This document shows, piece after piece, positions 1,822-28,577 of a DNA stretch of 28,936 nt (positions are counted from its first letter, which is position 1; each line of letters begins with the position of its first letter). Position numbers and translations under genes: made by a program. The notes under the pieces are model-generated. The model saw only the letters and a program-made list of their open reading frames with translations, made no database searches and was not told the DNA's origin. The stretch comes from a virus, in the IMG/VR virus record IMGVR_UViG_3300030103_004108; one strand, 5' to 3'.

Positions 1822-1832
1822 ATCGTTCGTGT

Positions 1833-2606
1833 TTATGTAGGTACGTCGCTAACTATGTTACCACTCGTCATGTTTACCATCGTTCCGTTATTACTTCCAA
1901 TATTATCTGTAAGTGTCGGGAATGTATCGCCATCTCCCATACGCCACCAAGCTTCTATATTAGAAATAGACGAAACATCATTAGGAGCGCCGCCATTGTA
2001 TATACTTGTAACTTCGCTTTGTGTTAAACCTCTGCTGTAAATACTAACCTCATCGATGGCGCCATTAAAAAATTGACTAAAACCTCCATAGCCCGCATCT
2101 CCAAGCATTAAAGGTTCTGTGTTGCTATTAATGTTACCTGTTGCGCTTGCTGTTCCTTTTAAAACTCCGTCAATATAAATCTTAACATTACTGCCGTCAT
2201 AAGTTCCTACCACATTAATCCAAACATTTTGAGAAGGCACTACGCCACTAAACGCAGTAAAACTGCCATCGGGAGTGAGAACCGTAAAATATAATTCCCC
2301 TGCATTAGAAGAAGAACCGCTTCTCATATTTGCTAATTGAAAAGAATGACCAAAAGACGGCCCAATTTTTGCAACTATTGGGTGGTATTGATTTGAAGTA
2401 GCAACGTTGTTATTGTAATTAACCCAAGTAGAAATAGAAATTTCTGCGTATCCACTTCCTAAAGTATTATTGATTTCTACCCTGTCATCAACGCCGTCAA
2501 ACCGTACGCTCTTTGTATTAGAAAAAGACGAACCCACCTTTGCACCTTGTCCCCATCCTATGGTATTATTTACTGCTCCTTGACCGTATTCTATTGTATT
2601 CGCCAT
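1833..2606 (-). CDS. LamG/concanavalin-A-like lectin-domain protein; candidate tail fibre or receptor-binding protein (paralog A)
   Basis: SVRFDGVDDRV, ISISTWVN, VKIYIDGV and FNGAIDEVSIYSRGLTQSEVTSIYN fit the same pattern. It carries the shared C-terminal tail WWRMGDGDTFPTLTDNIGSNNGTMVNMTSGNIVSDVPT. Confidence 0.65.
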   Translation of the reverse strand: MANTIEYGQGAVNNTIGWGQGAKVGSSFSNTKSVRFDGVDDRVEINNTLGSGYAEISISTWVNYNNNVATSNQYHPIVAKIGPSFGHSFQLANMRSGSSSNAGELYFTVLTPDGSFTAFSGVVPSQNVWINVVGTYDGSNVKIYIDGVLKGTASATGNINSNTEPLMLGDAGYGGFSQFFNGAIDEVSIYSRGLTQSEVTSIYNGGAPNDVSSISNIEAWWRMGDGDTFPTLTDNIGSNNGTMVNMTSGNIVSDVPT

Positions 2607-2610
2607 TTTC

Positions 2611-3054
2611 TTATGTTGTTATGTCTCCAAACAAATACCAAGTATCTGTCGCTACTTTTAATATTGTTGCTACTGCGTACTGAGCTGCAAGTTTCGTCTT
2701 TCCACCGCTTGAATTTACCGTTACGCCTCCCGATGGTACTATTGTAATTTGACCTGCGCCGCCTTGAATTATTTCAATCCGTGTTCCAATAGGAAAAGCT
2801 ATTCCGCTATTAGTAGGAATTTTTAAATCTATTGCGCTACCGTTTGTGACTATGACCGTTTTATGGGCATCCGTCAAAACAAGGTTATAAGTTGTAACCG
2901 TTTGCTCGTTTAACGTACTATCTTTAAGCTGCGCTCCGCTTATCTTCTTAGATGCAAAACCACCTGCACCGTCACTTTCGGCAATAGCAAATTCGTCTGT
3001 ACTTGCTAAGTTGCTACTTTTTGCCGTTATCTGACTTATTCGTATTTCTGCCAT
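2611..3054 (-). CDS. Hypothetical virion protein (147 aa), Gly/Thr/Ile-rich and beta-rich
   Basis: ORF lying between the connector-like gene and the LamG genes. Its composition is typical of small fibre or baseplate proteins. No specific motif recognised. Confidence 0.6.
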   Translation of the reverse strand: MAEIRISQITAKSSNLASTDEFAIAESDGAGGFASKKISGAQLKDSTLNEQTVTTYNLVLTDAHKTVIVTNGSAIDLKIPTNSGIAFPIGTRIEIIQGGAGQITIVPSGGVTVNSSGGKTKLAAQYAVATILKVATDTWYLFGDITT

Positions 3055-3111
3055 AGTATTTTTTTAAATATAATTCTAAACGCTTTACGTTTTTTGCTTT
3101 CGGTTTGTATT

Positions 3112-3621
3112 TTAAAGTACCCATCCTTCGAAATTGTTGTAACTGTTTGGAAAAACGTCTGAACCTGTGTTTGCGTTGTATTCCGGAAACAAGTTATTGT
3201 TTTGACAAATGTAGTCTATAAACCTTTCTTTGTAGTGTTCGTATGTTTTGCGTTCACGTTCCATCAAAAAGTCTATTTCGTTTTTACTTACCGTTTCACT
3301 ATTTTCTGCACCGTGTTTATATACGCCTTTGTTGCCTATTGTAATAGCCGCAAAAGGTAGAAATTCTAACATAGATGCGTGGATAAGGCACGGTTTAATA
3401 TAAGTCGTTAGAAGTGATAAATACGGATCGGCTAAAGTACCTGCTATGATGTCTGCTTGAATCTTTTCTAGTAGCTTCGTACCTAACATACCTTGTATGT
3501 GTATGTCTTGTGCTATAGAAACGTACTGAATAAACTTGTCTACGTCTACGTTGCCGTTTACAGTAGTAAACTTTCGAACATCGTTTTGTGAAATTAAAAG
3601 TGCTTTTGCCATTATTGCCAA
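3112..3621 (-). CDS. Head-tail connector/adaptor-like protein (gp6-like), tentative
   Basis: 169 aa, overlapping the portal gene stop by 10 nt. The helical pattern (...FIQYVSIAQDIHIQGMLGTKLLEKI...YIKPCLIH...) resembles head-tail connector families. Assignment rests on pattern memory only. Confidence 0.4.
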   Translation of the reverse strand: MAIMAKALLISQNDVRKFTTVNGNVDVDKFIQYVSIAQDIHIQGMLGTKLLEKIQADIIAGTLADPYLSLLTTYIKPCLIHASMLEFLPFAAITIGNKGVYKHGAENSETVSKNEIDFLMERERKTYEHYKERFIDYICQNNNLFPEYNANTGSDVFPNSYNNFEGWVL

Positions 3622-5393
3622 TATTTTCTTGTGTTAGGATTGTTTGGTGAATATCCTTTAGTCCGTGTATCTCTTGGTCTTGTGCTAACTAATTTTGGGT
3701 TTCTAATTTCATAACCGTACTTCTTAGCTTTTGCACCTGCAATTTGTCTTGCTCTTGGACTTCTTACGTCAATTCCTGTGCCTTCGAAAGCCACAAAAAT
3801 AAGTTTGTTCCACCGATGAAAACAGTTTGGGCCTCCGTGGTGTAACCATATCGAATAAACGTCTGAGCCAAACTCACCGAAGCCGGGGTTTACAGGTTTG
3901 TTAGTCATCGCAAGTATATCTTCTTTACGATATATCTTGTTAGCAGTCATCATAGCTTTACAAAACTTCCTAGTTTTGCTTGTCGTTTTACCTGCATAAA
4001 CATACCTAGTAATAAACTTAATACCGTCTATCACTTCGTCTTGTTCACTTTTTGCGTTTGGAAAAGCAGTACCTGTAGAAACTAGGTTTATTAATTTGTC
4101 TTTAAAAGATAGTTCCGTTTTTATGTCGCTAGATAGTAGTTCGTTTTCTTTGTCGTCTGTGTCGTAGTCTACTTCGTATTCGTCAAGCAAAAGCCAATCT
4201 TCTTTAGGTTCTTCACCTAAGTCTATAAAGTCTTGTAAGTCCTTGTTTATATCGCTTAGTTCTACACCTGTTTCTTCTTCAAGTTCTTCACCGTCTAAAG
4301 GCACACCAATTTCTATAAATTCAAGTGGCTTAAGTGTCTTAAAGTACAAGTTCAAGCTAATTCCGTTGTAAGCAAGTATTTCGTCAAAGGCATCTAGCAG
4401 CATTTCTTGCATCGGTTTGATAACCATATTCGAAAATAGTGCGAAACTGTCTTTTAGTTCGTCTGAATTACTACTGAAGCCATTACTTGAAGCAATACCA
4501 AAAAGTAAAGGTGAAGTAACGTTATGCGCTAACATTATCTTGCGTAAACATTCTTCGCTTAAAGTAGAATACAAATCGGGTGCATCGTTTACAGGCATCG
4601 CATCAACCGTTGTCTTACTTTCTGCGTTGTTGTTAAAGGCAACTATAAGCTTTTCGCCATACGTTCCTGTCAAATTGTTTAAGACTTTGCTTTTTATTAA
4701 GTGTTGTTGGTCTTCACTTGGTACACCGTTGTTAAAGTTTACTACCGTTCTACCACTGAAACCGTTGTTTACTTCGTTTATAAGATAAGTGCTTATGTCT
4801 TCTTCTAAAGCACAATAAGGTAAACCGCCTGTATAGTCTACAAGTGCGAAATATTTCATTCCTACAGAATAAGGTCGAACCATCATAATTTCTAGACCTT
4901 CTTTTGAATAGCCGTAAGCAGGTATTCTTTTAGGTTTGTACTTCTTAACGTCTGACCAATCGTCACTATAGTAGTAAGCTTCTATTTCACCTTCAGAATT
5001 GCACTTTTCCGGTCTTAGTAATTGTACAGGTATGTGATGAACGTTTACTATCTTCTTACGATCTTTAGAATAAATTACTTGCATTGCACACTGACCTAGT
5101 AGTTTAAGGTCTGTTACAAGTCTTCTTACATCCGTCTTTTTGAATAAAGACATCATTACGGCGTAGTCGTTTGGCTTTACCTTTGCATCTGTAGCGTTTA
5201 GACCTTTACCGTACACTAAGCGTGTTATGTTGTTTATAATAGCGTTATTCGTAGTGCTATTAGTGTACATATCTATAAGGTGATTGTAATATAAATTGTC
5301 CTCACCGTATTCAACCCAATCGTTACGCTTACTTTCTGTAATTACAGGTGCTTCGTAAGTGCTTAATTCCAATAAGTGTATGTTGTTACTCAT
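3612..5393 (-). CDS. Portal protein fused to a MuF/SPP1 gp7-like head-morphogenesis domain
   Basis: 593 aa. The N-terminal ~380 aa are portal-like (WVEYGEDNLYYNHLIDMYTNSTTNNAIINNITRLVYGKG). An acidic linker follows (EELEEETGVELSD...DEYEVDYDTDD). The C-terminus carries RKFCKAMM...HHGGPNCFHRW, reminiscent of the MuF minor-head motif. No other ORF in the genome is portal-sized. Confidence 0.55.
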   Translation of the reverse strand: MSNNIHLLELSTYEAPVITESKRNDWVEYGEDNLYYNHLIDMYTNSTTNNAIINNITRLVYGKGLNATDAKVKPNDYAVMMSLFKKTDVRRLVTDLKLLGQCAMQVIYSKDRKKIVNVHHIPVQLLRPEKCNSEGEIEAYYYSDDWSDVKKYKPKRIPAYGYSKEGLEIMMVRPYSVGMKYFALVDYTGGLPYCALEEDISTYLINEVNNGFSGRTVVNFNNGVPSEDQQHLIKSKVLNNLTGTYGEKLIVAFNNNAESKTTVDAMPVNDAPDLYSTLSEECLRKIMLAHNVTSPLLFGIASSNGFSSNSDELKDSFALFSNMVIKPMQEMLLDAFDEILAYNGISLNLYFKTLKPLEFIEIGVPLDGEELEEETGVELSDINKDLQDFIDLGEEPKEDWLLLDEYEVDYDTDDKENELLSSDIKTELSFKDKLINLVSTGTAFPNAKSEQDEVIDGIKFITRYVYAGKTTSKTRKFCKAMMTANKIYRKEDILAMTNKPVNPGFGEFGSDVYSIWLHHGGPNCFHRWNKLIFVAFEGTGIDVRSPRARQIAGAKAKKYGYEIRNPKLVSTRPRDTRTKGYSPNNPNTRKYWQ

Positions 5394-5736
5394 AAATTAT
5401 AAATTCGTTATTTGAAACGTTTTGGGTGTACTCACCTTCGTTGACTGAATAGTTTACCACAGGCGTTTGGTTAGTGCAAAATATTCTGTCTTTATGTACT
5501 GTAGTAGTTCCGTTTTTTAGTGTAAGCTTATAAAAGTTGTTTTCTACAAGACTAAAAGAACCGTTTACAAAGGTAGCGTTTATTGTATCGTAATAGTCAC
5601 CGTTTGTAAAACTTGTAATTGTAATTTCTTTTTCTTCGCCTGTTGCTTCGTTCTGTACTAATAGCTTATCGTAAGTTTGGCTTCTTGGTATGAAGCTAAA
5701 ACTTTGTTCTGTTGCTATTGCTTGAAGTATTACCAT
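5386..5736 (-). CDS. Hypothetical structural-module protein (116 aa)
   Basis: ORF overlapping the portal gene start by 8 nt and preceded by the conserved AGTTATTATAGT-ATG leader. No motif recognised. Confidence 0.7.
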   Translation of the reverse strand: MVILQAIATEQSFSFIPRSQTYDKLLVQNEATGEEKEITITSFTNGDYYDTINATFVNGSFSLVENNFYKLTLKNGTTTVHKDRIFCTNQTPVVNYSVNEGEYTQNVSNNEFIIYE

Positions 5737-5785
5737 ACTATAATAACTAAAAAAGTGTAAAAGTGTTTTCTTTTCGTTTTTATGT

Positions 5786-5813
5786 AAAAAGAAAAAGCAC
5801 CCCGAAAGGTGCT
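5786..5813 (-). terminator. Rho-independent terminator after the 195-aa gene
   Basis: Minus-sense AGCACC-TTTCGG-GGTGCT (6-bp stem) followed by TTTTCTTTTT. It lies 27 nt past the stop at 5840. Confidence 0.75.
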
Positions 5814-5839
5814 AAATCTACACTATGAAAACAAAAAAC

Positions 5840-6427
5840 TTAAGAAGTTACTATAGTTGCATCTGCACCACTTACGGTTGCAAATAGTGTTTTTAATGTT
5901 GATTCGTTAGTACAATCTAAGAAGTTCGCAGGAAGTTCTTCTTCTGCCGTGAACGTCAAAGAGTAACCGTTGAAGTCACCTAACGCTGCACCTGTAGAAA
6001 TTTCACCTGCAGAAACGTCTGCACCTTGATCAAGTCCCATTAAAAAGAATTGGTCAGTCATTGTTCTGATAACGATTCTTGGTCTACCGTAAGCAAGAAG
6101 TTTTACGTTTTTAGTAGTCGCTGCATCTTGTCTTTTAAGGTTAGCTACTAAAGTCTGTGTAAAGAAAGTAGTACCATTGTCTCTTGAAGAATTAATTGCA
6201 GTTGTAAAACTGTTTGCCGTAGACTTTAATTCGTATTTGTATAGGTTCATAGAAGCACTATCGTCAATTGGAGTCCAATAGTCTATAACGTCTTCTTCAC
6301 CTGTTCCTGTTAAGTATGATGCTGAATCTGAATTTAATTTGTCGTAATTGATTATGTAAATTGCCTTAAGACCACTTACGGAATCTTTACATTGCTCTAT
6401 ACGACCGTTGCTAATATCACAAGCCAT
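5840..6427 (-). CDS. Putative major tail (tube) protein
   Basis: 195 aa. The gene stands alone, bracketed by two strong terminators directly after the capsid gene, which suggests high expression. Its size and beta-rich composition fit siphovirus tube proteins. No diagnostic motif. Confidence 0.4.
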   Translation of the reverse strand: MACDISNGRIEQCKDSVSGLKAIYIINYDKLNSDSASYLTGTGEEDVIDYWTPIDDSASMNLYKYELKSTANSFTTAINSSRDNGTTFFTQTLVANLKRQDAATTKNVKLLAYGRPRIVIRTMTDQFFLMGLDQGADVSAGEISTGAALGDFNGYSLTFTAEEELPANFLDCTNESTLKTLFATVSGADATIVTS

Positions 6428-6447
6428 TTTATTTTAGTTTTATGAAC

Positions 6448-6478
6448 AAAAAAAGCAGAAGGCATTTTACCTCCTGCT
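6448..6478 (-). terminator. Rho-independent terminator after the major capsid gene
   Basis: Minus-sense AGCAGGAGG-TAAAATG-CCTTCTGCT (9-bp stem with one G-U pair) followed by TTTTTTT. Confidence 0.8.
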
Positions 6479-6500
6479 TTAATATAGTTCGTGGTTAGTA

Positions 6501-7430
6501 TTAAGCGTAAATTACTACGTCTGAATTAATTCCCATTTGAACGGCTGCAGTAAATCGCATAATTACGCGAACATTTTGCGAACCGTCAAGGTCAGCCATA
6601 TCTAATACTTTAACTTCGTTAGTGTCGTTAAGTAGACCTGTACCGAAGAATAAGTTAGACTTTTGCGCTGCCATCATTGAAGAAGCAGGTAGACCTTGTG
6701 CTACAACTACAGGAATACCATCGAAAGAAAGCGCACCGTTGTTAAACCAAGTTGTACCTTCAGCGTTAACACCGTTAGCACCAAGACCGTTAGCACCGAA
6801 ACCACCTAAAGCACGGATATATGCTCTTGCTACGTTTGGAGCAACGTAAATGAATAAATCGTCTTTCCCATAGACATTTTGACCTATGGCATCAACCACC
6901 TTACCCATCTCATCGATGCAATTTGCGGCAGTAATAGCAGTTCCTGTTACTGCAGTACATCCACTACCACCTGCAGTTGCTAAGTAGTAGAATCCGTCAA
7001 ATTCTCCTGCGTTTCCTGTTTGACCACTCCAAATTGTAGATTCGATTTGTGAAGCTACTTTAGCACCTGTGTAACCAATTACATAGTCTTCGAAAGAAGC
7101 AGGTAAAGAATCAAAAGCAGAAAAGCCCATCTCAGCAGCTTGCCAAGTTGCGTGTAAATCTTTTTTACAAAGTTGTACGTTTACTTGGAATTCTTCCGGC
7201 TGAATGATTTTTTCAGTTAAAGTTAAAGTTCCATCTGCTGAAAAATCGCACGTTGCGTCTTTCACGATGTCGTTGTAAGATGCTACTTGTAGTACAGACT
7301 TGTACTTTACGTTCGGCATCACGGTAATTAAACCGTTTTCTAAAGTTTGTGCACTTAAAAGTGCTGCAGAAATATACTTGCCTGCAAATTCGCCTGCATA
7401 AGTAGTTCCTGTTGTTACGGGATTTGCCAT
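6501..7430 (-). CDS. Major capsid protein (HK97-fold-like)
   Basis: 309 aa. It follows an acidic scaffold-like gene and is followed by a strong terminator. Composition and length are typical of HK97-like capsid proteins. Assigned by position and pattern. Confidence 0.7.
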   Translation of the reverse strand: MANPVTTGTTYAGEFAGKYISAALLSAQTLENGLITVMPNVKYKSVLQVASYNDIVKDATCDFSADGTLTLTEKIIQPEEFQVNVQLCKKDLHATWQAAEMGFSAFDSLPASFEDYVIGYTGAKVASQIESTIWSGQTGNAGEFDGFYYLATAGGSGCTAVTGTAITAANCIDEMGKVVDAIGQNVYGKDDLFIYVAPNVARAYIRALGGFGANGLGANGVNAEGTTWFNNGALSFDGIPVVVAQGLPASSMMAAQKSNLFFGTGLLNDTNEVKVLDMADLDGSQNVRVIMRFTAAVQMGINSDVVIYA

Positions 7431-7453: not shown

Positions 7454-8110
7454 TTATTTTTTACTTAGTTTCTCCATTACTCTATCCATAGTGCTCTTTG
7501 CTCTATTTTTAGAGAATTGATGAAGTTCTATTTTCTCTTCGTTTTCCGGGTTGTGTGTAATAGGTTTAGCAGCAGGTTCTTCGTTAGAAAGTTCTACTGT
7601 TTCTTCTACTACTTCTTCAGAAGTAACTTCTTCTGTAGTTTCGTCTTTTGAAAATTCTTCTTTGTTGTTGATCTTAGAAAGATGCTCTACTTCTGCTTTC
7701 AGTTCTTCGTTCTCTTTTTTCAAAGCTTCAATTTCACTAAAGAAAGTTTCTTTAACAATTGACTCTACAGTTTTCTTAACAGGTTTTGTTTCTTCAGTCG
7801 CAGCTTCTACTTCTTCTTCTTTAGTTTCAACTTCTTCTTCAACTACTTCTTCTACTTCCTCTTTTTTAATTTCTGCTATAATACCTTCTTCTTCGATTAC
7901 AAGCATTTCACCTTCATCACCGTCAAGTTTATATTCACCTACAGGCATTGGTATTTTTTGTTCGTCTTCTGTTACGATAGCAACTTGAAAACCTGCAGCA
8001 AATTCTTCTGCTTCGATTCGTGTTTGTCCGTCTTCAAGACGTCTTTCTGCTAACTTAACTTCCATTCCTAAAAGTTCTCTTACTTTGTTTAAAATTGAAT
8101 TATCTTTCAT
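7454..8110 (-). CDS. Scaffolding-like protein (very acidic, Glu-rich coiled coil)
   Basis: 218 aa with long EE(V/T)EE tracts, immediately upstream of the capsid gene. Confidence 0.5.
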   Translation of the reverse strand: MKDNSILNKVRELLGMEVKLAERRLEDGQTRIEAEEFAAGFQVAIVTEDEQKIPMPVGEYKLDGDEGEMLVIEEEGIIAEIKKEEVEEVVEEEVETKEEEVEAATEETKPVKKTVESIVKETFFSEIEALKKENEELKAEVEHLSKINNKEEFSKDETTEEVTSEEVVEETVELSNEEPAAKPITHNPENEEKIELHQFSKNRAKSTMDRVMEKLSKK

Positions 8111-8129
8111 TTTGTTTATTTATTCGTGT

Positions 8130-8651
8130 TTATAGGTTTTTTCTTAAATTGTCTTGCATTTTTTTGTATTTAGCAATAGGCAACTTTAAACCTAAATCTT
8201 TTGCTGCTGCTTCTGCTTTTTGTAAATTTTTGTCAAATATATTCAAAAGGTTTTGCGCTTTTTTAACTTTTGGAGCTTTGCTTTTTTCTGCTTTTGCAAC
8301 TTCTGCTTCATAACCTTCTATTTGATTTTCATTACTTTTCAAAGATTTATTAGCATCTTCTAGTTGTCTTTTTGCTGCAAGAAACTTATCTTCTAAATCA
8401 AAATACTTATCTGAAGCTTTTTCACGATTTGTTAAAAGTTTCTGTCTTGCTTTTACTTCTCTATCGACAACTTTTTGCATATCCAACATACGCTTATTGT
8501 CTTGTTTTAATCCGTTTAAAATATCTTCACCTTGATCTAACGCTTTGTTCAAATCGTCAATAAGTCCAAGTTCTACTTTCTGTGCAGCTAACTTTGTTAT
8601 CTTATCTTCTTTAGCAAGTTTGCTAAATACTTTGTTCATTTGTGGATTCAT
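8130..8651 (-). CDS. Hypothetical coiled-coil protein (173 aa, Lys/Glu-rich)
   Basis: ORF between the protease and scaffold genes, preceded by the conserved leader AAGTTATTATAGT-ATG. Confidence 0.65.
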   Translation of the reverse strand: MNPQMNKVFSKLAKEDKITKLAAQKVELGLIDDLNKALDQGEDILNGLKQDNKRMLDMQKVVDREVKARQKLLTNREKASDKYFDLEDKFLAAKRQLEDANKSLKSNENQIEGYEAEVAKAEKSKAPKVKKAQNLLNIFDKNLQKAEAAAKDLGLKLPIAKYKKMQDNLRKNL

Positions 8652-8693
8652 ACTATAATAACTTTATTTTAAATTGTTTGTTGCATTTTCGTT

Positions 8694-8846
8694 TTAAATC
8701 TTGCCTATTCCTTGCGCTCTAAGTGTGCCATCACAACACTTTGAAGAGTATGTATTGTCTTTGCATAAACAACCTCTTTTGCCTCCTTTACCTGTGGCTT
8801 TACCTTGTGTTTCTTTGCTTGTGTTTTTACTTACTTTCTTACGCAT
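8694..8846 (-). CDS. Small basic Cys-rich protein (50 aa), not in the ORF track
   Basis: Hand translation: MRKKVSKNTSKETQGKATGKGGKRGCLCKDNTYSSKCCDGTLRAQGIGKI. The ATG at 8846 overlaps the protease 3' end by 16 nt. The ORF fills an otherwise 179-nt gap, and its codon usage resembles neighbouring genes. Confidence 0.45.
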   Translation of the reverse strand: MRKKVSKNTSKETQGKATGKGGKRGCLCKDNTYSSKCCDGTLRAQGIGKI

Positions 8847-9982
8847 TTGCCGTTCTTTTTTTTGTAACCTTTAGGACATTTACCGTACATATCTACTATG
8901 TGTGTTTTGCCTACCATATACCAAGTCTTACCTTCGTATTCGTGTTCGTGTATGCCTTCAACACCTACGTCTTTAGCTGCTTTTTCTGCCATAGTTTTAG
9001 AAGAATACGCTAGTCTATCGTCTATAATAGCATAGTTGTCATCTACTACCATACTTGCTAAGTCTTCACGTTCTATTTGTTTAAGCTTTGCTTCTGCCCA
9101 TGTCTTCGCAGATTTACCTCCCCAAAGTAAATAGGAAATATATCCGCAACTTTCTTTATCGCCTTGATCATAGTAAACTTCTGCTCTACTTAAATAAGAA
9201 TACAAGCGTTTAATCACAGACACCGACAACTTTTCTTTGTCCATTAATTGCTTACTTCTTAATTTTCCTATGCGTGTCGCGCACTTATTACCTACTGCTT
9301 TATTTAGTTCACGTCCACGTTTAGCGTTGTTGCTTACACTTTCCGGGTAGTCATTATAAGATGCTAGTTTTTCTTGGCTTAGAAGTTCTTTAAGTTCTTC
9401 TATTGTAAACCTTTCTTCTAGTTCTTCAAGTGTTTCCGTGTTTAAGTCGTACTTATCTGCAAAATATCCTTCAATAGAAAAACCTTTTATTTCACCGTCT
9501 TTGGCTTTTTTGTATATGTCTTCGTTATCGATTTTCATAGACACCATCCAAGTACCTTTCACCATATCCATACCGTAAAGTGCAGACTTGTCGGTCTTAC
9601 TGTTTTCTACTATCCAACTTTCAACTATTGTAGTACCGTCAACTTTTTCACTATGTTCTAAAGTTGCGTTTTGGTGATTAGACTTTTTAAAGAATAGTTC
9701 TGAAGCCTTCCTAACTGTGTCTTCTGAAAAGTAAATATAGTATTCTTCGTTCGTCTTGTCGTTACGTCTGTAAATTTGTTTGTTAGGCACTAAAGCCGCA
9801 CCCATAAGAATACGCTTTTCACTATCTACTTCTTTCAAAAGTATTTCGTGTTTATTTAGTGCTACAAAGTTTTCTTGAATTGCCGGTTCTGAAACTACTG
9901 AAATTGCATCTATACCTGCTTGGTCATCGTTTTCGTCTATTACAAGTTCTACGATTTTAAACGCTCTTGATTCTTTGTTCAT
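8831..9982 (-). CDS. XkdF-like prohead (serine) protease domain with a long C-terminal extension
   Basis: The N-terminal ~175 aa (AISVVSEPAIQENF...RILMGAALVPN...YIYFSEDTVRKASELF...LEHS...ESWIV...GTWMVSMKI...GFSIEGYF) fit the PBSX XkdF / Peptidase_S78_2 pattern. The C-terminal half holds a YPESVSNNAKRG...LLWGGKSAKTWAEAK block, an HEHEYEGKTWYMVGKTH block and a Cys/Lys tail. Confidence 0.6.
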   Translation of the reverse strand: MNKESRAFKIVELVIDENDDQAGIDAISVVSEPAIQENFVALNKHEILLKEVDSEKRILMGAALVPNKQIYRRNDKTNEEYYIYFSEDTVRKASELFFKKSNHQNATLEHSEKVDGTTIVESWIVENSKTDKSALYGMDMVKGTWMVSMKIDNEDIYKKAKDGEIKGFSIEGYFADKYDLNTETLEELEERFTIEELKELLSQEKLASYNDYPESVSNNAKRGRELNKAVGNKCATRIGKLRSKQLMDKEKLSVSVIKRLYSYLSRAEVYYDQGDKESCGYISYLLWGGKSAKTWAEAKLKQIEREDLASMVVDDNYAIIDDRLAYSSKTMAEKAAKDVGVEGIHEHEYEGKTWYMVGKTHIVDMYGKCPKGYKKKNGKCVRK

Positions 9983-20025: not shown

Positions 20026-20052
20026 AAAAAAAAGCACCCATTTCTGAGTGCT
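20026..20052 (-). terminator. Rho-independent terminator closing the early/replication-recombination operon
   Basis: Minus-sense AGCACUC-AGAAAU-GGGUGCU (7-bp stem with one G-U pair) followed by a U7-8 tract. It starts 24 nt past the stop at 20076. Confidence 0.8.
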
Positions 20053-20075
20053 TCACCTAAACAACTTAACCTAAT

Positions 20076-20875: not shown

Positions 20876-21068
20876 TGTATTCGTTTAGTTCTTTAATAAT
20901 TAGATCAACACCTTCTATAAAATCTATTTTTCTGCTTTTGATAAGCATAACAGTCTCGTTGATTGTTTCTCTGTCTCCTATGACATATCCAAGTTTACTC
21001 AGAAGTTGTTTAGACTCTTGTTCTTTTCTTTTTAATTCTCTGTAGTGTTCAAATATTTGATTGTCCAT
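20847..21068 (-). CDS. Hypothetical protein (73 aa)
   Basis: ORF from the track, 3 nt downstream of the exonuclease gene. No motif recognised. Confidence 0.6.
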   Translation of the reverse strand: MDNQIFEHYRELKRKEQESKQLLSKLGYVIGDRETINETVMLIKSRKIDFIEGVDLIIKELNEYNADNENTKN

Positions 21069-21071
21069 ATC

Positions 21072-21737
21072 TTAGCTTATTAGTGTTGCGTAATACTTTC
21101 TGCAGTCTTCTATTCTGTCGTATATGTCTTTTATTACTTGTTCGTCACGTTCTATAACAAAAGTTTTTATTCGTTTTTCTGCAGGTATGTTGTCAAAGTT
21201 GTGCTGCGCTTCAACGTGTTCACGAAGTTCATCACTTTCATCTATTAAGTGTTCTTTCCAATGTGCACGTCTTACTTCGTCTTCTACCATAAGTGTAGGT
21301 GTGTTTACTAAGCAATAACATAAGTAAGATTTAGTCTTACCTGTTAAAGCCATATAACCTTGCAGTTGATAATAGTAGTCTTTGTTCGGTATGTCTTCTG
21401 CAAAGAATGGAAACGTTGTAGCATCCCAAGAAGATTTAACGTCAAGTATAATGTCCGTGTTTACATCGGGTGTACCTGTCAAGTAGTCGTTTGTAAAGTG
21501 TTCTTCGTTCTTGATCATAAAACCTAAGTCTAAAACGTTTTCGCATAGCTTTATTGCATCGTCTTCAACTTCGTTGCCTTTGTCCGTGTATCTACTGTTA
21601 AACTCTTTACGTTTGCCGTACATTTCTTCTACTGCAAGTTCCTGTAAATATGTCTTACAAGTCTTGCTTAGTGTTTCTGTTTTACTTCTACTGTTAGTCA
21701 TTATCTTACCAATAGAAGAACACCTAATCTTTAGCAT
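21072..21737 (-). CDS. YqaJ/lambda-exonuclease-like PD-(D/E)XK recombination exonuclease
   Basis: 221 aa. It carries an N-terminal RCSSIGKIMT, a catalytic-type GTPDVNTDIILDVKSS, and YYYQLQGYMALTGK. Confidence 0.7.
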   Translation of the reverse strand: MLKIRCSSIGKIMTNSRSKTETLSKTCKTYLQELAVEEMYGKRKEFNSRYTDKGNEVEDDAIKLCENVLDLGFMIKNEEHFTNDYLTGTPDVNTDIILDVKSSWDATTFPFFAEDIPNKDYYYQLQGYMALTGKTKSYLCYCLVNTPTLMVEDEVRRAHWKEHLIDESDELREHVEAQHNFDNIPAEKRIKTFVIERDEQVIKDIYDRIEDCRKYYATLIS

Positions 21738-22255
21738 AATTCAAGTGCTTTAGATTGTGAAGTAGTTAGTGCAAACTTATCTGTAAGTTTGTCTTTCGTA
21801 ATCTTACCTTCTTGTACTGCTTTTAACGCATCTTTAAAGCGTGGCCAACTTAGCTTTTCTTTCTTATCTACAGGTACTTGCTCACCTGCTGCATCCGTAT
21901 CTTTGTCAGTTACTAAGCCAAGACTGCTCGAAATACAGTAACGACGGAAATAACTCACGCCACTACCGAAACTTTGGTAGTCATTCATTCCTTTTAAACT
22001 TACTTGTGGAATAAGTGTGTTTGATTCTAACGTTTCACCACTTTCAACGTGAAAGATAATAGTGTTTAAGTAATTATCTTCTTCGTGTGTGTTAATTAGT
22101 TGTGTGAATCCTAATCCGTGTTTTTCTAATAGTGGGTTAATCTTGTCAAAGATCGTAGGCAAGTCTGCATACGAATATCCATAACCTTTTGTGCCTTTGA
22201 ATATTGGCTTTACTTCTTGCTGAAAAGCTGCAAGTGCTTTAAATAAATGTTTCAT
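21731..22255 (-). CDS. erf: Erf-family single-strand annealing protein
   Basis: 174 aa. YSYADLPTIFDKINPLLEKHGLGFTQ ... FHVESGETLES ... FGSGVSYFRRYCISSSLGLVTDKDTD fits the ERF superfamily pattern (Y.YA.L ... H.SGE ... tY.RRY ... D.D). It overlaps the exonuclease gene by 7 nt. Confidence 0.75.
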   Translation of the reverse strand: MKHLFKALAAFQQEVKPIFKGTKGYGYSYADLPTIFDKINPLLEKHGLGFTQLINTHEEDNYLNTIIFHVESGETLESNTLIPQVSLKGMNDYQSFGSGVSYFRRYCISSSLGLVTDKDTDAAGEQVPVDKKEKLSWPRFKDALKAVQEGKITKDKLTDKFALTTSQSKALELC

Positions 22256-23213: not shown

Positions 23214-23503
23214 AATTCTAATTTAGCATCGTTAATAATTTCTTTTAGCTTATCTATTTCGTGTTTATGTTCTGCTATTATTATTTGATTTCTAAGATTA
23301 GCTTTACATTCTAAATAATATTCTTCTTCAAACTTCATAAAAATTGAATTAAAGTGTTCTATGTCTTCTAAGCTTTCTTTCATAGAAGTAATTAAGTCTG
23401 TTCTGCCTTCGTGTTTTTCTACAAGTTCCTCAAGACTTGCTTTAAACTTTATAATCGTAGTCTTTAAGTTTATTTTTGCTTTTAGTATTTCAAGTGTGTT
23501 CAT
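23210..23503 (-). CDS. Hypothetical coiled-coil protein (97 aa)
   Basis: ORF from the track, 3 nt downstream of the preceding gene. Confidence 0.65.
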   Translation of the reverse strand: MNTLEILKAKINLKTTIIKFKASLEELVEKHEGRTDLITSMKESLEDIEHFNSIFMKFEEEYYLECKANLRNQIIIAEHKHEIDKLKEIINDAKLEL

Positions 23504-24170: not shown

Positions 24171-25025
24171 TCATCTTATATTTTTTAGTGGGTTTACGCC
24201 TCCTATTTCAAAACCTAAACCACGATTAAATTCACAAAATATATAGTCTTCTAATAACGTTTGTTGACCTCCTGTATCTGTGTCTTTTATTTTGTCTACA
24301 GAAATTAAAGTTACATATTTCATCGATTCGTGTTTTACTAGACGGTGTATAACTAGAAAGTCATCGCATCTATTTAAGAAGCTTTTACCACCTTCTATGT
24401 GTGCAGCCATAGGTGGTTTTAGATGTCCTGCCCAATTATGACCTGTAGGAAATAAATTTCCACCTCTACCACTTTCAGAAGTTGGGTGCGTGTTTATGTA
24501 GATAGTCTTGCCTGTTTCGTTTACAAACTGTCGTGACATATTTAAAAACTCGTAGTTACCTTCGTAACCCATCTTTCTATCAAGTCCGGTATAAGGATCA
24601 ATTAAACAAGCGTTAGCATCTGACTGTCTAAATAGTTCTAAAAGTTCTGCAGGTTTGTAAAGCTTTGAATTGTCTATAAAGTCAAAGTATTGTTCTAAGT
24701 ATGTAGATGCGCTTGTTATTTGTTTATGGCTTAAAGTCTTGTACGGTTTGCCTGTAAACATTTGTATCATATCACGAAGAATCTGTCCGTAGCTATTTTC
24801 TCCTGCCCATAGACAAAACTTTAAATCGTGTTTAAGTGCAAGTGTCAAAAAGTAGAAAAAAACGAAGTAGGATTTTCCAACGTTGTCGTGTCCTAAAATT
24901 ATATTCAGTTGTTTAGGTTTAAATACTATGTGCTTGTCAAGTTCGCAACCTATTTCTAAACCTTGTTTTATTTTACCGTCTCTATAGTCAAGTAAGTATT
25001 TTAATTGTTCGCCTTTTCTAAGCAT
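24171..25025 (-). CDS. DnaB/RecA-fold P-loop replicative helicase-like ATPase
   Basis: 284 aa. Walker A is ILGHDNVGKS and Walker B is ANACLIDPY. INTHPTSESGR is a motif-H-like segment. It overlaps the upstream replication gene by 8 nt. Confidence 0.6.
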   Translation of the reverse strand: MLRKGEQLKYLLDYRDGKIKQGLEIGCELDKHIVFKPKQLNIILGHDNVGKSYFVFFYFLTLALKHDLKFCLWAGENSYGQILRDMIQMFTGKPYKTLSHKQITSASTYLEQYFDFIDNSKLYKPAELLELFRQSDANACLIDPYTGLDRKMGYEGNYEFLNMSRQFVNETGKTIYINTHPTSESGRGGNLFPTGHNWAGHLKPPMAAHIEGGKSFLNRCDDFLVIHRLVKHESMKYVTLISVDKIKDTDTGGQQTLLEDYIFCEFNRGLGFEIGGVNPLKNIR

Positions 25026-25581
25026 ATCCTAACCTTTTTGCTTTTTGTGTAAGTTTGTCTTCTTCGTGTTTTGGTTCTTTCTTTAACCAATTCTTTGCAG
25101 TCAAATATAGTGATTTGTATTTCTTGTTTTGTTTAAAGTTTTCAATGCTATCTAAACACGAATCTATTTGCTCTTTTGTGTAGTCTACCTGTAACTTGTT
25201 AAACTGTTCTACAGACATAGACAGATGAGCGAAGCTCCTATATATATCTTTTACATTAACTATTACATTATCGGTTATTTCTGTTATAGGTTTATAACAA
25301 GTGTTATCGTTGTTATCTTTATTCCATCGTTTAGCCATTCCTTTTTTACCTGCTTCGCTTTTCTTCTTTCGTATCTGTTCGTATTTGCGTAGGTCACGCT
25401 TTAAGTTTTGTTTAATTGGTTCAAAACAAACTTCTGTAAGTAAGTCCTCTGTTTCCGGGTTCAAGTCGTTGACGTATTCTAAAACGTGCTTAAACAACTT
25501 ACCTGCTTGTTCGTCACTCAACTTCTGAACCGTGTGTATTAAGTCGCAATAAAGTAAAAAGCTTTTCTTGTTATCTGCCAT
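25018..25581 (-). CDS. Replisome-organiser-like replication protein (start moved to MADNKK, 187 aa)
   Basis: SFLLYCDLIHTVQKLSDEQAGKLFKHVLEYVN ... KRDLRKYEQIRKKKSEAGKKG resembles the N-terminal domain of phage replication-organiser / DUF6291-type proteins. The track start at 25626 would place a T9-containing leader inside the ORF. Confidence 0.4.
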   Translation of the reverse strand: MADNKKSFLLYCDLIHTVQKLSDEQAGKLFKHVLEYVNDLNPETEDLLTEVCFEPIKQNLKRDLRKYEQIRKKKSEAGKKGMAKRWNKDNNDNTCYKPITEITDNVIVNVKDIYRSFAHLSMSVEQFNKLQVDYTKEQIDSCLDSIENFKQNKKYKSLYLTAKNWLKKEPKHEEDKLTQKAKRLGYA

Positions 25582-25680: not shown

Positions 25681-26097
25681 TTAATTTTGCAGATGCTTGT
25701 GCTTTTCGTTTAACAAATTTAAATTTTCTATTAATTGACTTGAGTAACGCTCTATAATTCTAATCATATATTCATTACTGTCTACTAGGTCTATTAATTT
25801 TTGTTTTGCTTCTGCATATACCTTCTGCCTTTTTTTAAAAAATTGTATATACTCGTTAGTGTCCTTATAAAGAATCTGATCGTTTATTTCTTTAAGTTGT
25901 TTATATTCATAAATTGCGTGTATTACTGTAGCGTGATTTTTACTAAACATAAAAGCTATTCTAACATAACTGTAGCCATATTCTTTTAAAATATTATACA
26001 AATACATTCGTTTATGTATCTTTTCTCTTTTCCGGTTTTTATGTCTAAGGTTATCTTTAGAAATCAAAAACTCTACATCTTTAATCAATTCTTCCAT
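25681..26097 (-). CDS. DnaA domain IV-like helix-turn-helix protein
   Basis: 138 aa. KIHKRMYLYNILKEYGYSYVRIAFMFSKNHATVIHAIYEYKQL parallels the DnaA C-terminal DNA-binding pattern (R..amyL.r..t..S...IG..f.rdHtTVlHA...i). Confidence 0.55.
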   Translation of the reverse strand: MEELIKDVEFLISKDNLRHKNRKREKIHKRMYLYNILKEYGYSYVRIAFMFSKNHATVIHAIYEYKQLKEINDQILYKDTNEYIQFFKKRQKVYAEAKQKLIDLVDSNEYMIRIIERYSSQLIENLNLLNEKHKHLQN

Positions 26098-26463: not shown

Positions 26464-26784
26464 TTAGTTATCTTCGTTTAACATTCGTTCTAGTTCTGAG
26501 CATATATCTTGCTTAGAATAGTACATAGTGCCGTGACATTCTAGCGTGTCCATTCTAACAAAAGTTACTGTTTCTATGTGTTCTTCGTATTGTATTTCGT
26601 CAGTAAAGCCGTTAAAGCTTACAGATTCTTCTTGCCAATACGTTTCAGTTTCTATGCAAACACGAAACTCAGTATCGTGTATTCCAAACTCTACTATGTC
26701 GTCTTCGTTCTTAAATATTTCTATTTCTCCTTTCATTATCCAAAAATTAAAATAGTGTAGTAATACATCGTAGCCAAAGTGCAT
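26464..26784 (-). CDS. Hypothetical acidic early protein (106 aa; alternative start MKGEIEIF at 26736)
   Basis: ORF from the track. The N-terminal 16 aa are hydrophobic and aromatic and may be leader rather than protein. Confidence 0.55.
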   Translation of the reverse strand: MHFGYDVLLHYFNFWIMKGEIEIFKNEDDIVEFGIHDTEFRVCIETETYWQEESVSFNGFTDEIQYEEHIETVTFVRMDTLECHGTMYYSKQDICSELERMLNEDN

Positions 26785-26827
26785 AAATATACTATGCCGT
26801 AAATCGTATCTTTTATTCCGTCTTTCA

Positions 26828-27046
26828 TTATTTCAGTTTATTTAGTTGTTTAGTAAATCTTTCGTTTAATCTGCCGATGCACATAGTATATATAACAATA
26901 TTATGAATGTTTTTCTTGTTTATGTTAGGAAATTCTAAGCCAAGACCTATGCCGTTAGACCATTCGGCATTTTCTATTCTTTTCTCAAAGTGTTCGATTG
27001 CTTCCTGTATTTCAATAAGCAATTCAAGTGTTTCTGTTCTGTTCAT
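26828..27046 (-). CDS. Hypothetical first early protein (72 aa)
   Basis: ORF from the track, directly downstream of the best promoter match. Confidence 0.6.
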   Translation of the reverse strand: MNRTETLELLIEIQEAIEHFEKRIENAEWSNGIGLGLEFPNINKKNIHNIVIYTMCIGRLNERFTKQLNKLK

Positions 27047-27135
27047 TTTTTTAAGTGTTAAATTAATTGTGTATACAAATCTAACAATAAAAACGAATTG
27101 TTAACAAAAAAAGTTACGTTTTTAACAAAAAAGTT
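27047..27135 (-). promoter_or_regulatory. Early promoter region: -33 TTTG (27105..27108), -7 TAGATTTG (27076..27083), palindrome TGTATACA, two TTAACAAAAAAGTT direct repeats
   Basis: Minus-sense TTTG-N21-TAGATTTG-TATACACAATTAATTTAACACTTAAAAAA-ATG matches the Bacteroidota TTTG / TAnnTTTG consensus. This is the only sizeable non-coding gap before the replication genes. Confidence 0.55.
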
Positions 27136-28170
27136 TTAGAAAAGGTGTGTAAGTCTTGCTACTTGTCCGTTTTCACGGTGGTGAATGAAACCTTCTACGG
27201 CGGCTAAAGACAAATAACCTTTCTTGTGATGCCAAGAATCTGAGCCACTTGGAGAACGTAAAGACTCTACTGTAACCGATAAATAGTCTTTACTTGTTTT
27301 ATGGTGAACGTGATGCGTGTAAACGTACCTGTGTTTAGTTTCTGCCCATTCCATAGGAAATTCTGTTGCCATAAGCAAAGGTAAGTCTTGGTGCTTTGCA
27401 CCGTCTCCGTGTGTAGTGCCTATTAAATTGTTTCCGAAAGAATACGCTTTACGGTGTGCTATTGAACAGTCAAAGCTTATGTTTTTGCAGTTTCTGAAGT
27501 ACGTTTTTATGACGTCTGCAAGAAAAAAACCTGTTTGGTAGTCGTGGTTACTTGGGTTAAAAGTAAAGTGTACGTCTGCTACTGCGATCAACTGAAGCAA
27601 AATATCAACATAAAGTTGTTTAGCTATTAAGAAATTACTGTACCACATAGAATCCGTGTCTTGATGGGTGCCGGAAGTCGTAGTACGGTGTGGTGTGTCT
27701 ATGTGTAGAATATCGTTACCACCGATAAATAAAATTTTATCTATAGGAAACCCTTGCGCTTTGTTTAAAATGCCTTGTACGCCTTCTTTGACACGTTTAA
27801 CGGCAATTTGGTTGTTGTAGTCTTCGCCTGTTTCAAAACTGTCTGCAAGTTTGCCTATGTGAATGTCTGCAGGATCAATAACAAGTAGATAATCTTTCTT
27901 TTTTTCTTTGCGTATTAACTTCGGAAACTTAGGTGCAAATTGTTTTAAGTCTTCTATAAGTTTCTTGCTTAGTTCTTCAAGTTTGTTTTCTGCTTCGTCT
28001 TTATGTAGTGGGTTCTTAAAAAATAGACTTGCTTGTTTAGTTTTAAGCCATCCGTGTTTAACGCTTTCGACATCTACACCTGCTTCTTCTGAAGCTGCTT
28101 TTAAACCTCTATAACGAAACAGAATTTCTGCTTCATCCGGTGTAAGTCTGTAACGCTTGTTCTCACTCAT
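27136..28170 (-). CDS. Calcineurin-like metallophosphoesterase with a ~95-aa N-terminal extension
   Basis: 344 aa. The ordered motifs are VIDPADIHIG (D-x-H), FIGGNDILH, NPSNHDY (N-H-D/E), GTTHGDG and YTHHVHH (G-H-x-H-like). Its ATG shares an ATGA overlap with the stop of the spanin-like gene. Confidence 0.7.
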   Translation of the reverse strand: MSENKRYRLTPDEAEILFRYRGLKAASEEAGVDVESVKHGWLKTKQASLFFKNPLHKDEAENKLEELSKKLIEDLKQFAPKFPKLIRKEKKKDYLLVIDPADIHIGKLADSFETGEDYNNQIAVKRVKEGVQGILNKAQGFPIDKILFIGGNDILHIDTPHRTTTSGTHQDTDSMWYSNFLIAKQLYVDILLQLIAVADVHFTFNPSNHDYQTGFFLADVIKTYFRNCKNISFDCSIAHRKAYSFGNNLIGTTHGDGAKHQDLPLLMATEFPMEWAETKHRYVYTHHVHHKTSKDYLSVTVESLRSPSGSDSWHHKKGYLSLAAVEGFIHHRENGQVARLTHLF

Positions 28171-28577
28171 ACATATTTGTTAACTACCTTACCAACTATA
28201 AACAGAAAACCACCAACAATACAAAGCCCTATAATTAGCCACATATAGTTTGGTTTTTTACTTGCTTTTGCTTTCTGTACTTCTATTCGTGTTACTTGGC
28301 GTATAGTGTCTCGGTGTATTTTGTATTCTATTCGTGTTTCTAACCTTGTTTTAGGCACAAACACGTTCTGATAGTGTACTATTGTGTCCTTACTACTGAA
28401 GTATTTTTCATATACAATCGTGTCGTGTTTTACTACAGGAATAGAATCAATTGTTGCTATTCTAATCGTGTCGCTTGAAATAAGAGGCTCTAAGCCCTTT
28501 TTGAGAGCCTTCCTATAGTGATAGTTAGCCGAGCAACTAAACAGCGTTAAAACGCAAATAAGACTATAAATTCGCAT
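28167..28577 (-). CDS. Unimolecular spanin candidate (lipoprotein signal plus C-terminal TMD); start moved to MRIYSL (136 aa)
   Basis: MRIYSLICVLTLFSC carries a lipobox L-F-S-C. The C-terminal MWLIIGLCIVGGFLFIVGKVV is a transmembrane helix. The middle is beta-rich with four DTI(R/V) repeats. The start overlaps the amidase 3' end by 14 nt. Confidence 0.55.
   Translation of the reverse strand: MRIYSLICVLTLFSCSANYHYRKALKKGLEPLISSDTIRIATIDSIPVVKHDTIVYEKYFSSKDTIVHYQNVFVPKTRLETRIEYKIHRDTIRQVTRIEVQKAKASKKPNYMWLIIGLCIVGGFLFIVGKVVNKYV

Follow-up and report, generated by a model that had tools for sequence, protein, structure and literature searches.

Genome organization and relatives

The 28,936-nt virus record IMGVR_UViG_3300030103_004108 in IMG/VR carries a nine-base word, TTCGTGTTT on its plus strand, that recurs along its length, and the present analysis concerns this word and what might read it. 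Positions 1-120 of the stretch, which we call the window and by which we mean the whole of the DNA analysed, are repeated exactly at 28817-28936 as a 120-bp terminal direct repeat that contains no copy of the word. The window represents a complete phage genome of 28,816 bp, assembled as a circle, the junction of which is crossed by an Amidase_2 endolysin gene located directly after the holin gene (145-618). All plausible genes are encoded on the minus strand, with a coding density of 95%, so that AAACACGAA is the gene-sense form of the word.

PHROG and Pfam scans of the window revealed a siphovirus-like gene map with a single direction of transcription. In map order, lysis genes and a gene for an SbcD-like phosphoesterase precede a group of small early genes, one of which (25681-26097) encodes a helix-turn-helix (HTH) protein resembling DnaA domain IV; these are followed by genes for a DUF6291 replisome-organizer-like protein, a helicase and Mom, and then by NinG, Erf and an exonuclease. 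SSB and a weak sigma-like match come next, ahead of TerS, TerL, the structural genes and the portal, and the map closes with tail fibres and the holin. Nucleases found by these scans include NinG, PDDEXK_14 and the SbcD-like protein. Profile searches of the window found no RHH protein, and an Rfam scan returned no matches.

A megablast search of the window against phage records gave no nucleotide match, and the closest cultured relatives are the Nonlabens phages P12024S and P12024L, with a portal identity of 34%; both are without the word. The clade to which the window belongs is uncultured and very abundant in marine and freshwater metagenomes, with at least 582 relatives in IMG/VR by a TerL scan. 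For comparison we used about 250 loci obtained from IMG/VR scans with the portal, the DnaA-like protein and TerL; those with 61-64% portal identity are denoted as the freshwater subclade, a name that rests on IMG sample numbers suggesting lakes. The members are probably virulent, and their uncultured hosts are probably Flavobacteriia. A scan of genome contigs for host DNA returned only phage-sized contigs from metagenome-assembled genomes (MAGs), and all matches in a search for amidase homologues were phage contigs. Phage-sized contigs of the clade binned in MAGs (L081-L083, L085 (CBDICL01), L084 and L086-L088) carry the labels Flavobacteriaceae, Crocinitomicaceae, Candidatus Fonsibacter, Methanobacteriota and Psychromonas, and a single 'Flavobacteriaceae' MAG contains four distinct clade phages. 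Because clade phages are binned under such disparate labels, the labels are unreliable as host evidence.

Enrichment of a degenerate nine-base word

An exact search of the window for TTCGTGTTT identified 17 copies on the plus strand and 3 on the minus strand (664, 25154, 26658). An earlier reading of this DNA, made from the letters alone and here called the sequence-only reading, had listed the same three minus-strand copies and 16 of the plus-strand copies, all correctly placed, and the search adds the copy at 23258. Its rough expectation was about one copy or fewer in 29 kb; dinucleotide-preserving shuffles yield a mean of 1.25 copies on both strands together (maximum 5). The 14 coding copies are spread over frames 0, 1 and 2 (5, 5 and 4), and the three others (1826, 8123, 17337) are positioned within, or straddle the edge of, short intergenic spacers; the use of all three frames and the spacer positions had both been read correctly, as had one-off variants at 13522 and 28286, which are present as TAACACGAA in the gene sense.

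Inside genes, where 14 sense and 3 antisense copies are observed, shuffling synonymous codons while keeping the proteins gave 3.7 sense and 0.21 antisense copies, and permuting codons within genes gave 0.89 and 0.04. These shuffles, which the sequence-only reading had named as a possible refutation, leave a real excess that a peptide effect does not explain. It represents a signal at the DNA or RNA level, as the sequence-only reading had proposed, because all frames and intergenic DNA are used, because the count exceeds that of codon-preserving shuffles, and because sites turn over among relatives while density is kept (see below).

Pooling 101 word-rich loci (1.0 Mb), we found AAACACGAA 17-fold, AAACACGGA 15-fold and AAAGACGAA 9.7-fold above expectation, with most other single substitutions at or below background and five more enriched 2.7-4.9-fold. 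Because these three forms are all enriched, the full word is defined as the degenerate AAASACGRA in the gene sense (complement TYCGTSTTT), and in the pooled relatives the same spectrum of variants is enriched on both strands. AAASACGRA occurs 37 times in the window (32 sense, 5 opposite), compared with 2.56 in shuffles, at a density of about 1.3/kb over the whole phage chromosome. Twenty-eight of the 32 sense copies fall inside genes, where codon-preserving shuffles give 7.1. The word holds about 16 bits of information and has six A and no T in the gene sense. In the literature searched, we found no paper in which the 9-mer appears as a word.

That the excess is a functionless by-product of composition, of codon usage or of the avoidance of words such as CATG and CGCG is hardly conceivable. 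In the pooled relatives of the clade AAACATGAA and AAACGCGAA are about ten-fold under-represented, and avoidance of CATG pushes histidine codons to CAC before G; yet shuffles that hold proteins and codon usage fixed fall well short of the counts observed (3.7 against 14 for the exact word, 7.1 against 28 for the degenerate one), the excess extends to every frame and to intergenic DNA, and no excess of the word is seen in sister phages that match in GC content and have normal CpG.

Conservation, turnover and loss among relatives

In the set of relatives assembled by portal (650 kb), 175 sense and 26 antisense copies were counted against 15.2 and 2.5 expected, which bears out the enrichment in relatives that the sequence-only reading would predict; a second set of relatives contains 354 sense and 71 antisense copies against 22 and 2.0 expected. 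In de novo counts no 9-mer is more over-represented than the word, either in the window or in relatives down to about 61-73% portal identity, including the freshwater subclade. Clustering by flanking sequence resolved the copies into about 60 independent sites in the sense orientation and 8 in the antisense, the majority restricted to sublineages, and no flanking base is conserved among relatives within 20 nt on either side. Density is thus kept while positions turn over, and selection acts on copy number, not on location: AAASACGRA is a DNA-level recognition word whose copy number is under selection.

We also examined at least 120 viral contigs with two copies within 30 nt. Among the matches listed, dispersed enrichment is found only in members of the clade, and the other two-copy matches are tandem repeats. 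One long-read contig (L374; ENA ERZ26859011 ctg145542, 80,461 bp) has 21 copies in its clade part and none in an adjoining foreign block (1-6450), so that the run of copies ends exactly at the boundary between the two. This block contains opposite-strand phage-like genes (Sipho_Gp157, GP88), has a GC content of 0.37 and a CpG observed/expected ratio of 0.44, and holds 41 GATC; the two parts were either joined by chimeric assembly or belong to a larger composite element.

Five clade members are without the word (L240, L238, L235, L169 and L143). Their CpG observed/expected ratios are 0.32-0.77, compared with 0.9-1.1 in word-rich genomes, with an excess of TpG/CpA in L240 and L238, and the CG of the word is destroyed at orthologous positions. 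A scan for lineage-specific genes covering L240, L238, L235 and L169 found a glucosyltransferase-like gene in L240 and L238 (L240:8751-9695), a thymidylate-synthase-like gene with a weak methyltransferase-like match together with a phrog_16728 gene in L235 (943-3868), and a methyltransferase in L169 (14752-15339); a methyltransferase of L240 is common to 11 word-rich loci. Three of the four scanned lineages have putative base-modification genes beyond a methyltransferase. These genes and the loss of CpG suggest that the word-poor sublineages carry modified or CpG-methylated DNA. Presence of the word and its loss where CpG is depleted distinguish sublineages and may be of use in recognising modified genomes.

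The variable modification genes of the clade raise the possibility that the word is itself a modification target, of Mom or of a methyltransferase. They are diverse and share one variable location close to the replication genes, which is taken by Mom in the window, by C5 methylases in L032 and L093, and by Mom and an N6/N4 methylase in L374. They differ, however, among genomes that are all rich in the word, and there is no evident reason for a modification target to be enriched. Mom, which the sequence-only reading had named as a candidate, is present in the window and L374 and missing from 11 directly compared relatives, several of them word-rich, and we discard it both as the modifier of the word and as its reader. 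A related proposal, that the word acts in mRNA as a signal for translation, RNase processing or stability, is consistent with some copies abutting start codons, but not with enrichment in the opposite orientation or with copies in all frames far from gene starts. Taken as one explanation, modification target or mRNA signal seems to us a remote prospect.

Orientation of copies

The gene-sense strand is A-rich and T-poor, and Markov and codon null models expect a sense-to-antisense ratio of 14-23:1, against 17:3 (exact word) and 32:5 (degenerate word) in the window. Because composition predicts such a ratio, strand bias alone is weak evidence for orientation dependence, and much of it is due to the A-rich coding strand. 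The bias described in the sequence-only reading is real as a count (17:3 in the exact search) but does not by itself show orientation dependence.

The opposite-orientation copies are themselves in excess. The window contains 5 degenerate antisense copies against 0.12-0.27 expected, all located in a single 6.3-kb arc from 25101 through the junction to 2600, in which 0.05 are expected. The arc holds 5 sense and 5 antisense copies and the remaining 22.5 kb holds 27 sense and none antisense, while sense copies are 11-12-fold enriched in both parts alike. We extended this comparison to an orientation profile of 74 loci centred on the DUF6291 gene (2-kb bins, 20 kb). Sense enrichment is 10-24-fold in every bin, and the word is as dense in the early region as in the late one. 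Antisense copies are enriched 17-77-fold between −8 and +6 kb but not farther out; the interval from +6 to +10 kb contains 45 sense clusters and none in antisense. Antisense copies flank the DUF6291 gene on both sides and are found solely in and near the early and replication region. The seven portal and tail genes give 87 sense contexts and 2 antisense ones, even at low AT skew. A polarity switch at the DUF6291 gene, hinted at by the window, is not supported by this profile, in which antisense copies lie on both sides, and their confinement to −8 to +6 kb speaks against a wholly orientation-blind reading.

These patterns bear on two explanations. The word could be a dispersed site for a sequence-specific protein that binds duplex DNA, encoded by phage or host, that coats or marks the phage chromosome in an architectural, condensation or global regulatory role; such a protein would read either orientation, and the ratio of the two would be set by the cost of each in the A-rich coding strand. 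Consistent with this, both orientations exceed every null in the window and in both sets of relatives, the same variants are enriched on both strands, an asymmetric 9-bp site with two tolerant positions is typical of monomer binding, and most marine members encode an HTH of the Bac_DnaA_C type. We nevertheless consider it rather unlikely: none of the candidate readers varies together with the word, the late half lacks antisense copies even in stretches of low AT skew (87:2 in the portal and tail genes, 45:0 beyond +6 kb), and we know of no precedent for a virulent phage that needs about 37 such sites.

Alternatively, a site-specific nickase could recognise the word, so that virion DNA would carry localized single-strand interruptions of the kind found in T5, phiKMV-like and tf/LUZ24-like phages. 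The closest formal match to the word is of this kind: the nick consensus TACTRTGMC of phage tf has 14 copies over 46 kb, all on one strand, with two tolerant positions (PMC3517423). In the window, 27 of 27 copies in 22.5 kb are likewise on one strand, and the nucleases NinG, PDDEXK_14 and the SbcD-like protein are encoded. Five of the 37 copies, conserved in relatives, are nevertheless on the other strand, so the restriction to a single strand is lacking, and positions turn over, whereas those of the LUZ24 group are similar across phages (PMC3517423). The ends of 153 fragmentary contigs, a weak test of breakage at nicks, do not coincide with the word. We judge nick sites very unlikely.

Spacing and position relative to genes

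Spacing of the word in the window is close to random (CV, coefficient of variation, 0.79-0.97), with a mean of 855 bp for the 32 sense copies. It is somewhat more regular in L179 and L193 (CV 0.58-0.59), where 0.2-0.3% of random placements are as regular. This bears on the proposal that the word directs a primase to start Okazaki fragments about every kb on the displaced lagging strand, with replication co-directional with transcription. The sense copies, at their mean spacing, run through the early and late regions alike, the spacing in L179 and L193 is somewhat regular, and opposite copies are limited to the surroundings of the replication module, as initiation in both directions would require; no primase gene was detected in the window by PHROG scans. 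Against priming, spacing in the window itself is indistinguishable from random, the presumed origin has antisense copies to either side, loci with a swapped replication module retain the word, and known primases recognise 3-5 nt, not 9. We regard this proposal as quite unlikely.

The region 25063-25162, in the 3′ part of the DUF6291 gene, contains within about 100 bp a sense copy at 25063, an opposite copy at 25154 and a one-mismatch copy at 25121. The divergent pair may mark an origin-like spot, by analogy with the replication origins inside lambda O and SPP1 gene 38. There is no iteron-like cluster of copies in the window, and origin iterons are rejected as an explanation of the word, as copies do not cluster and form only the divergent pair 25154/25063.

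With respect to gene starts, 16% of site clusters are located 0-20 nt 5′ of a start codon, against 3.3% expected, and the others are scattered in coding DNA. Corrected for A-richness, the preference for the 40 nt before start codons is only about two-fold, on which ground a leader or ribosome-binding-site role is rejected. The same leader excess is one of the observations in favour of a transcription signal, either a roadblock of the stoperator type, used by a phage regulator, or a promoter or activator box of a sigma-like factor; the sequence-only reading had suggested a site for the sigma factor or a regulator. Most copies are oriented with transcription, and stoperators are also dispersed and asymmetric with one predominant orientation (PMC6550527). 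On the other side, PHROG and Pfam scans of the window found no integrase or repressor, there is no divergent control region, and all genes are on one strand; genes contain 28 of the 32 sense copies; the 20 nt on either side hold no conserved second promoter element; several intergenic copies are 1-4 nt from an ATG, too close for a promoter; and early and late densities are equal, with the leader preference reduced to about two-fold. We find a transcriptional role highly unlikely, and the sigma-factor site is not supported.

Three convincing intrinsic terminator hairpins are encoded on the minus strand, at 6452-6480 (after gene 6501-7430), 5796-5813 (after 5840-6427) and 20031-20054 (after the SSB gene, just before the sigma-like gene), and hint at boundaries of transcription units. 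In the window, predicted terminators and the word are not associated; some relatives have a copy directly 3′ of the 5813-type terminator.

Search for a phage-encoded reader

No phage gene that we tested tracks the word. The DnaA-like gene, which the sequence-only reading had suggested, lies in the window at 25681-26097 (minus strand), directly upstream of the DUF6291/helicase replication module, and encodes a 138-aa protein with an N-terminal Pfam Bac_DnaA_C HTH (33.3 bits, cutoff 31.5). Its recognition helix is NHATVIHA; that of DnaA is DHTTVLHA. The window allele is about 40% identical to that of L001, while neighbouring genes are 84-98% identical. Although most clade members from marine samples encode an HTH of the DnaA-domain-IV type beside their replication genes, the gene is missing from the word-rich freshwater subclade, where the early region is fully covered, word-rich L032, L034, L050 and L071 being without it, and unrelated carriers at a GC content of 0.35-0.41 hold no copy or at most one. 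Nor does the type of recognition helix predict the word (alignment, viral scan and helix typing), and the protein is rejected as the reader.

The other candidates fared similarly. The replication module is swapped in word-rich L050 and L071, where the word persists. NinG, a 97-aa protein, the helicase, TerS and TerL are shared with word-rich genomes, at mostly 50-94% identity, by several word-poor relatives, and neither presence or absence nor allele identity supports DUF6291. The sigma-like protein has homologues in word-poor relatives that are only 41-60% identical to the closest word-rich match; with homologues so divergent the allele test is weak, and sigma is the least firmly excluded candidate.

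The terminase genes bear on a further explanation, in which the word is a polar packaging guide or self-recognition word for the terminase, in the manner of KOPS/FtsK, or a mark of the headful substrate. Sense copies are co-oriented through the late half and downstream of TerS and TerL, and the word is found only in clade DNA among the matches listed and is absent from the foreign block of L374. Word-poor L240, L238 and L235, however, share TerS and TerL with word-rich genomes at 78-90% identity, and we know of no such mechanism for terminases. A packaging word is very improbable.

Individual copies and other skewed words

Sense copies are on the minus strand, and those of the exact form AAACACGAA begin with two in spacers. 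The copy at 1826-1834 overlaps the upstream stop codon and is 4 nt 5′ of the ATG of 1039-1821; that at 8123-8131, kept in 9 loci, also overlaps a stop codon and is 12 nt 5′ of the ATG of 7454-8110. A further intergenic copy (17337-17345) is in the spacer between TerL and 16564-17319. Frame 0 copies are located at 9845-9853 (K-H-E; kept in 11 loci, to about 51% protein identity), 23258-23266 (the copy absent from the earlier list), 23408-23416, 24327-24335 in the helicase gene, and 25063-25071 at the 3′ end of the DUF6291 gene, where it forms the divergent pair with 25154. Those in frame 1 are at 8017-8025, 14791-14799, 17742-17750 in the TerL gene, 19526-19534 in the sigma-like gene and 28331-28339 (kept in 8 loci), and those in frame 2 at 13678-13686, 16595-16603 (38 nt 5′ of the next start codon), 18943-18951 (29 nt 5′ of the TerS start) and 20854-20862 (3′ end of 20847-21068). 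The copies at 14791 and 16595 share a 22-nt identical stretch, ttcaaaaagcaaAAACACGAAa (14787-14811 and 16591-16615, minus strand), although they are in different genes and frames.

Among the sense variants, AAAGACGAA is found at 2693-2701, 7640-7648, 16335-16343, 18097-18105 (TerL gene), 18825-18833 (TerS gene), 20607-20615 and 27994-28002; AAAGACGGA at 5131-5139 (portal gene), 20272-20280 and 26817-26825; and AAACACGGA at 9435-9443, 12175-12183, 21454-21462, 22115-22123 and 28051-28059. The opposite-orientation copies, on the plus strand, are AAACACGAA at 664-672 (kept in 3 loci), 25154-25162 (inside the DUF6291 gene, kept in 3 loci) and 26658-26666 (kept in 5 loci), AAAGACGGA at 1733-1741 and AAAGACGAA at 2524-2532.

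A second enriched word, TACCTGTA/TACAGGTA, has 9 copies in the window (773, 4070, 5025, 10240, 13443, 13808, 17665, 21869 and 25186), against 1.3 in shuffles, divided 5:4 between the strands. ACCTGTA has 10 and 9 window copies on the two strands, and CCTGTA words (CCTGTAG, ACCTGTA, CCTGTAA) are some of the most over-represented words of five relatives (L001, L006, L082, L133 and others); in the relatives counted, enrichment of the exact 8-mer TACCTGTA/TACAGGTA is only weak. The window also avoids short words of the palindromic or restriction type: it contains 23 GATC against an estimate of roughly 90 from base composition, and some relatives are without any GATC, as is L248 in 13.7 kb. GACGC occurs once on the sense strand of the window, against 36-41 for its sister GACGN words.

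In one syntenic relative (L093:2230-15509, IMGVR_UViG_3300024581_000905), which has no AAACACGAA, 7 copies of AAACACGGA and 9 of AAAAACGAA, all 23 GATC in 16 kb sit within GATCTGG(A/T), 17 sense and 6 antisense. Their mean spacing is 604 bp with a CV of 0.27, and 0 of 20,000 random placements were as regular. This relative encodes a C5 cytosine methylase (7993-8874).

A possible host reader

We infer that the word is read by a host protein, because its copy number is under selection, it is spread over the whole genome, it does not depend on any phage gene tested, and genomes with an altered DNA regime have lost it. The reading that we tentatively favour, as possible rather than probable, is that AAASACGRA is a Chi-like attenuator of a host helicase-nuclease of the AddAB/RecBCD class; a Chi-like role was also the first suggestion of the sequence-only reading. 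Chi acting on RecBCD/AddAB is the sole established case of a short asymmetric word that aids a replicon by copy number through a host enzyme, and Chi protects rolling-circle tails from RecBCD.

According to this model, a processive helicase-nuclease of the host would enter the phage DNA at a free double-strand end, either the tail of a rolling-circle concatemer or an end of the injected, circularly permuted genome, and would proceed until it meets the word. There it would switch from degradation to a recombination-proficient state, and a high density of the word would limit the loss before attenuation in a genome of 29 kb. Concatemers, and permuted genomes packaged by the headful and exposing their ends, are probable for this phage. 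Of all this, the enrichment, the frame independence, the conservation across the clade with turnover of sites, the independence from candidate phage readers and the loss in CpG-depleted lineages are observed; a host-encoded reader, its nature as a nuclease and its action on meeting the word are inferred. The genetic background is an Erf, an exonuclease and NinG encoded by the phage; PHROG scans of 40 of the 46 window open reading frames found no Gam- or Abc-type nuclease inhibitor. In its scattered, frame-independent over-representation in a replicon the word resembles Chi. For the single orientation of Chi, the window gives 27:0 in 22.5 kb and 5:5 in the 6.3-kb arc, and the family places antisense copies on both sides of the replication module. 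Bacteroides fragilis, of the same phylum, uses AddAB (PMC2887965). Our literature search on Bacteroidota Chi or skewed oligomers found nothing usable.

Several observations weigh against a Chi-like attenuator. Known Chi densities are far below 1.3/kb, and the known AddAB Chi sequences have 5-7 nt against nine in the word. The phage carries its own Erf/exonuclease system, and Bobay et al. are said to have found in 2013 that phages with their own recombinases do not accumulate Chi. The 17-77-fold enrichment of antisense copies, limited to about 8 kb around the replication module and present on both of its sides, counts against a one-ended Chi because a simple one-ended model does not predict it. 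The cultured Flavobacteriaceae phages Nonlabens P12024S and Leeuwenhoekiella Arctus_1 have neither an excess of the word nor a comparable word, and in word-poor relatives there is no equally strong replacement. The approximately two-fold leader preference may reflect relaxed constraint before start codons as well as function.

The word could instead be a polar, genome-wide signal read by the DNA machinery of the phage itself, as a KOPS-like packaging guide or a 9-nt priming signal. We consider this unlikely, and to our knowledge neither kind of signal has a precedent in tailed phages. If it were so, the word would be a new kind of genome-wide signal, and could belong to a general, so far unnoticed layer of short 'architecture' words in small phage genomes, with which the GATCTGGW of L093 (about every 600 bp) may be compared. 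If the word is a Chi-like attenuator, it would be, as far as we know, the first candidate Chi for a Bacteroidota AddAB enzyme, would make a long-open question testable with purified enzyme, and would provide a sequence signature linking phages to hosts. In either case, a word enriched 10-20-fold across an abundant clade points to an interaction not yet understood.

Comparison with known systems

Dispersed words selected for copy number are known as a class that includes Chi, uptake sequences, stoperators and nick sites, and AAASACGRA shares with them only the generic features of membership. Start-associated sequences of Cluster K, MotA boxes of T4 and late promoters are short asymmetric words upstream of many genes in one orientation; unlike these, only about 16% of word clusters are within 20 nt of a start, and the word has no partner element and no temporal class. 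DnaA boxes (TTATCCACA) are also asymmetric 9-bp sites, bound by a monomeric HTH (domain IV), but share with the word only the CAC core, and the DnaA-like gene is missing from a word-rich subclade and present in phages without the word.

The Haemophilus uptake signal sequence (USS) and the Neisseria DNA uptake sequence (DUS) resemble the word in having a 9-10-mer core at about 1/kb, independent of frame, in genes and spacers and maintained by copy number. They differ in that both orientations are equal and in being found on chromosomes of competent hosts through uptake bias, whereas the word is 32:5, an inequality that composition predicts, and no link is seen between this probably virulent clade and competence.

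The stoperators of Cluster A mycobacteriophages are dispersed, asymmetric 13-bp repressor sites with one predominant orientation (PMC6550527, PMC9283540). Like the word, they number dozens genome-wide, lie mostly in one orientation (32 of 37 copies of the word are sense) and have a motif that varies in relatives, although sense predominance of the word is inseparable from composition because all genes are on one strand. Stoperators co-evolve with the immunity repressor of temperate phages; here no such repressor was found in the window, and most copies are inside genes.

The nick consensus of tf/LUZ24, T5 and phiKMV phages resembles the word in being a 9-mer with two tolerant positions and at least a dozen scattered, nearly one-stranded copies (PMC3517423). 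It differs in that tf-like sites are strictly on one strand and at similar positions in relatives, whereas 5 of 37 copies of the word are opposite and positions turn over.

Chi (GCTGGTGG in E. coli, GCGCGTG in Lactococcus, AGCGG in B. subtilis) differs in that the word is far denser (1.3/kb) and longer, that opposite copies of the word are confined to the early region, and that the phage has its own Erf/exonuclease. Chi is like the word in being short, asymmetric, of about 16 bits, frame-independent and scattered. It too is over-represented with a strand preference, useful by copy number and specific to host lineages, and some phages accumulate it. The GT-rich complement of the word contains CGTG, as does the Chi of Lactococcus.

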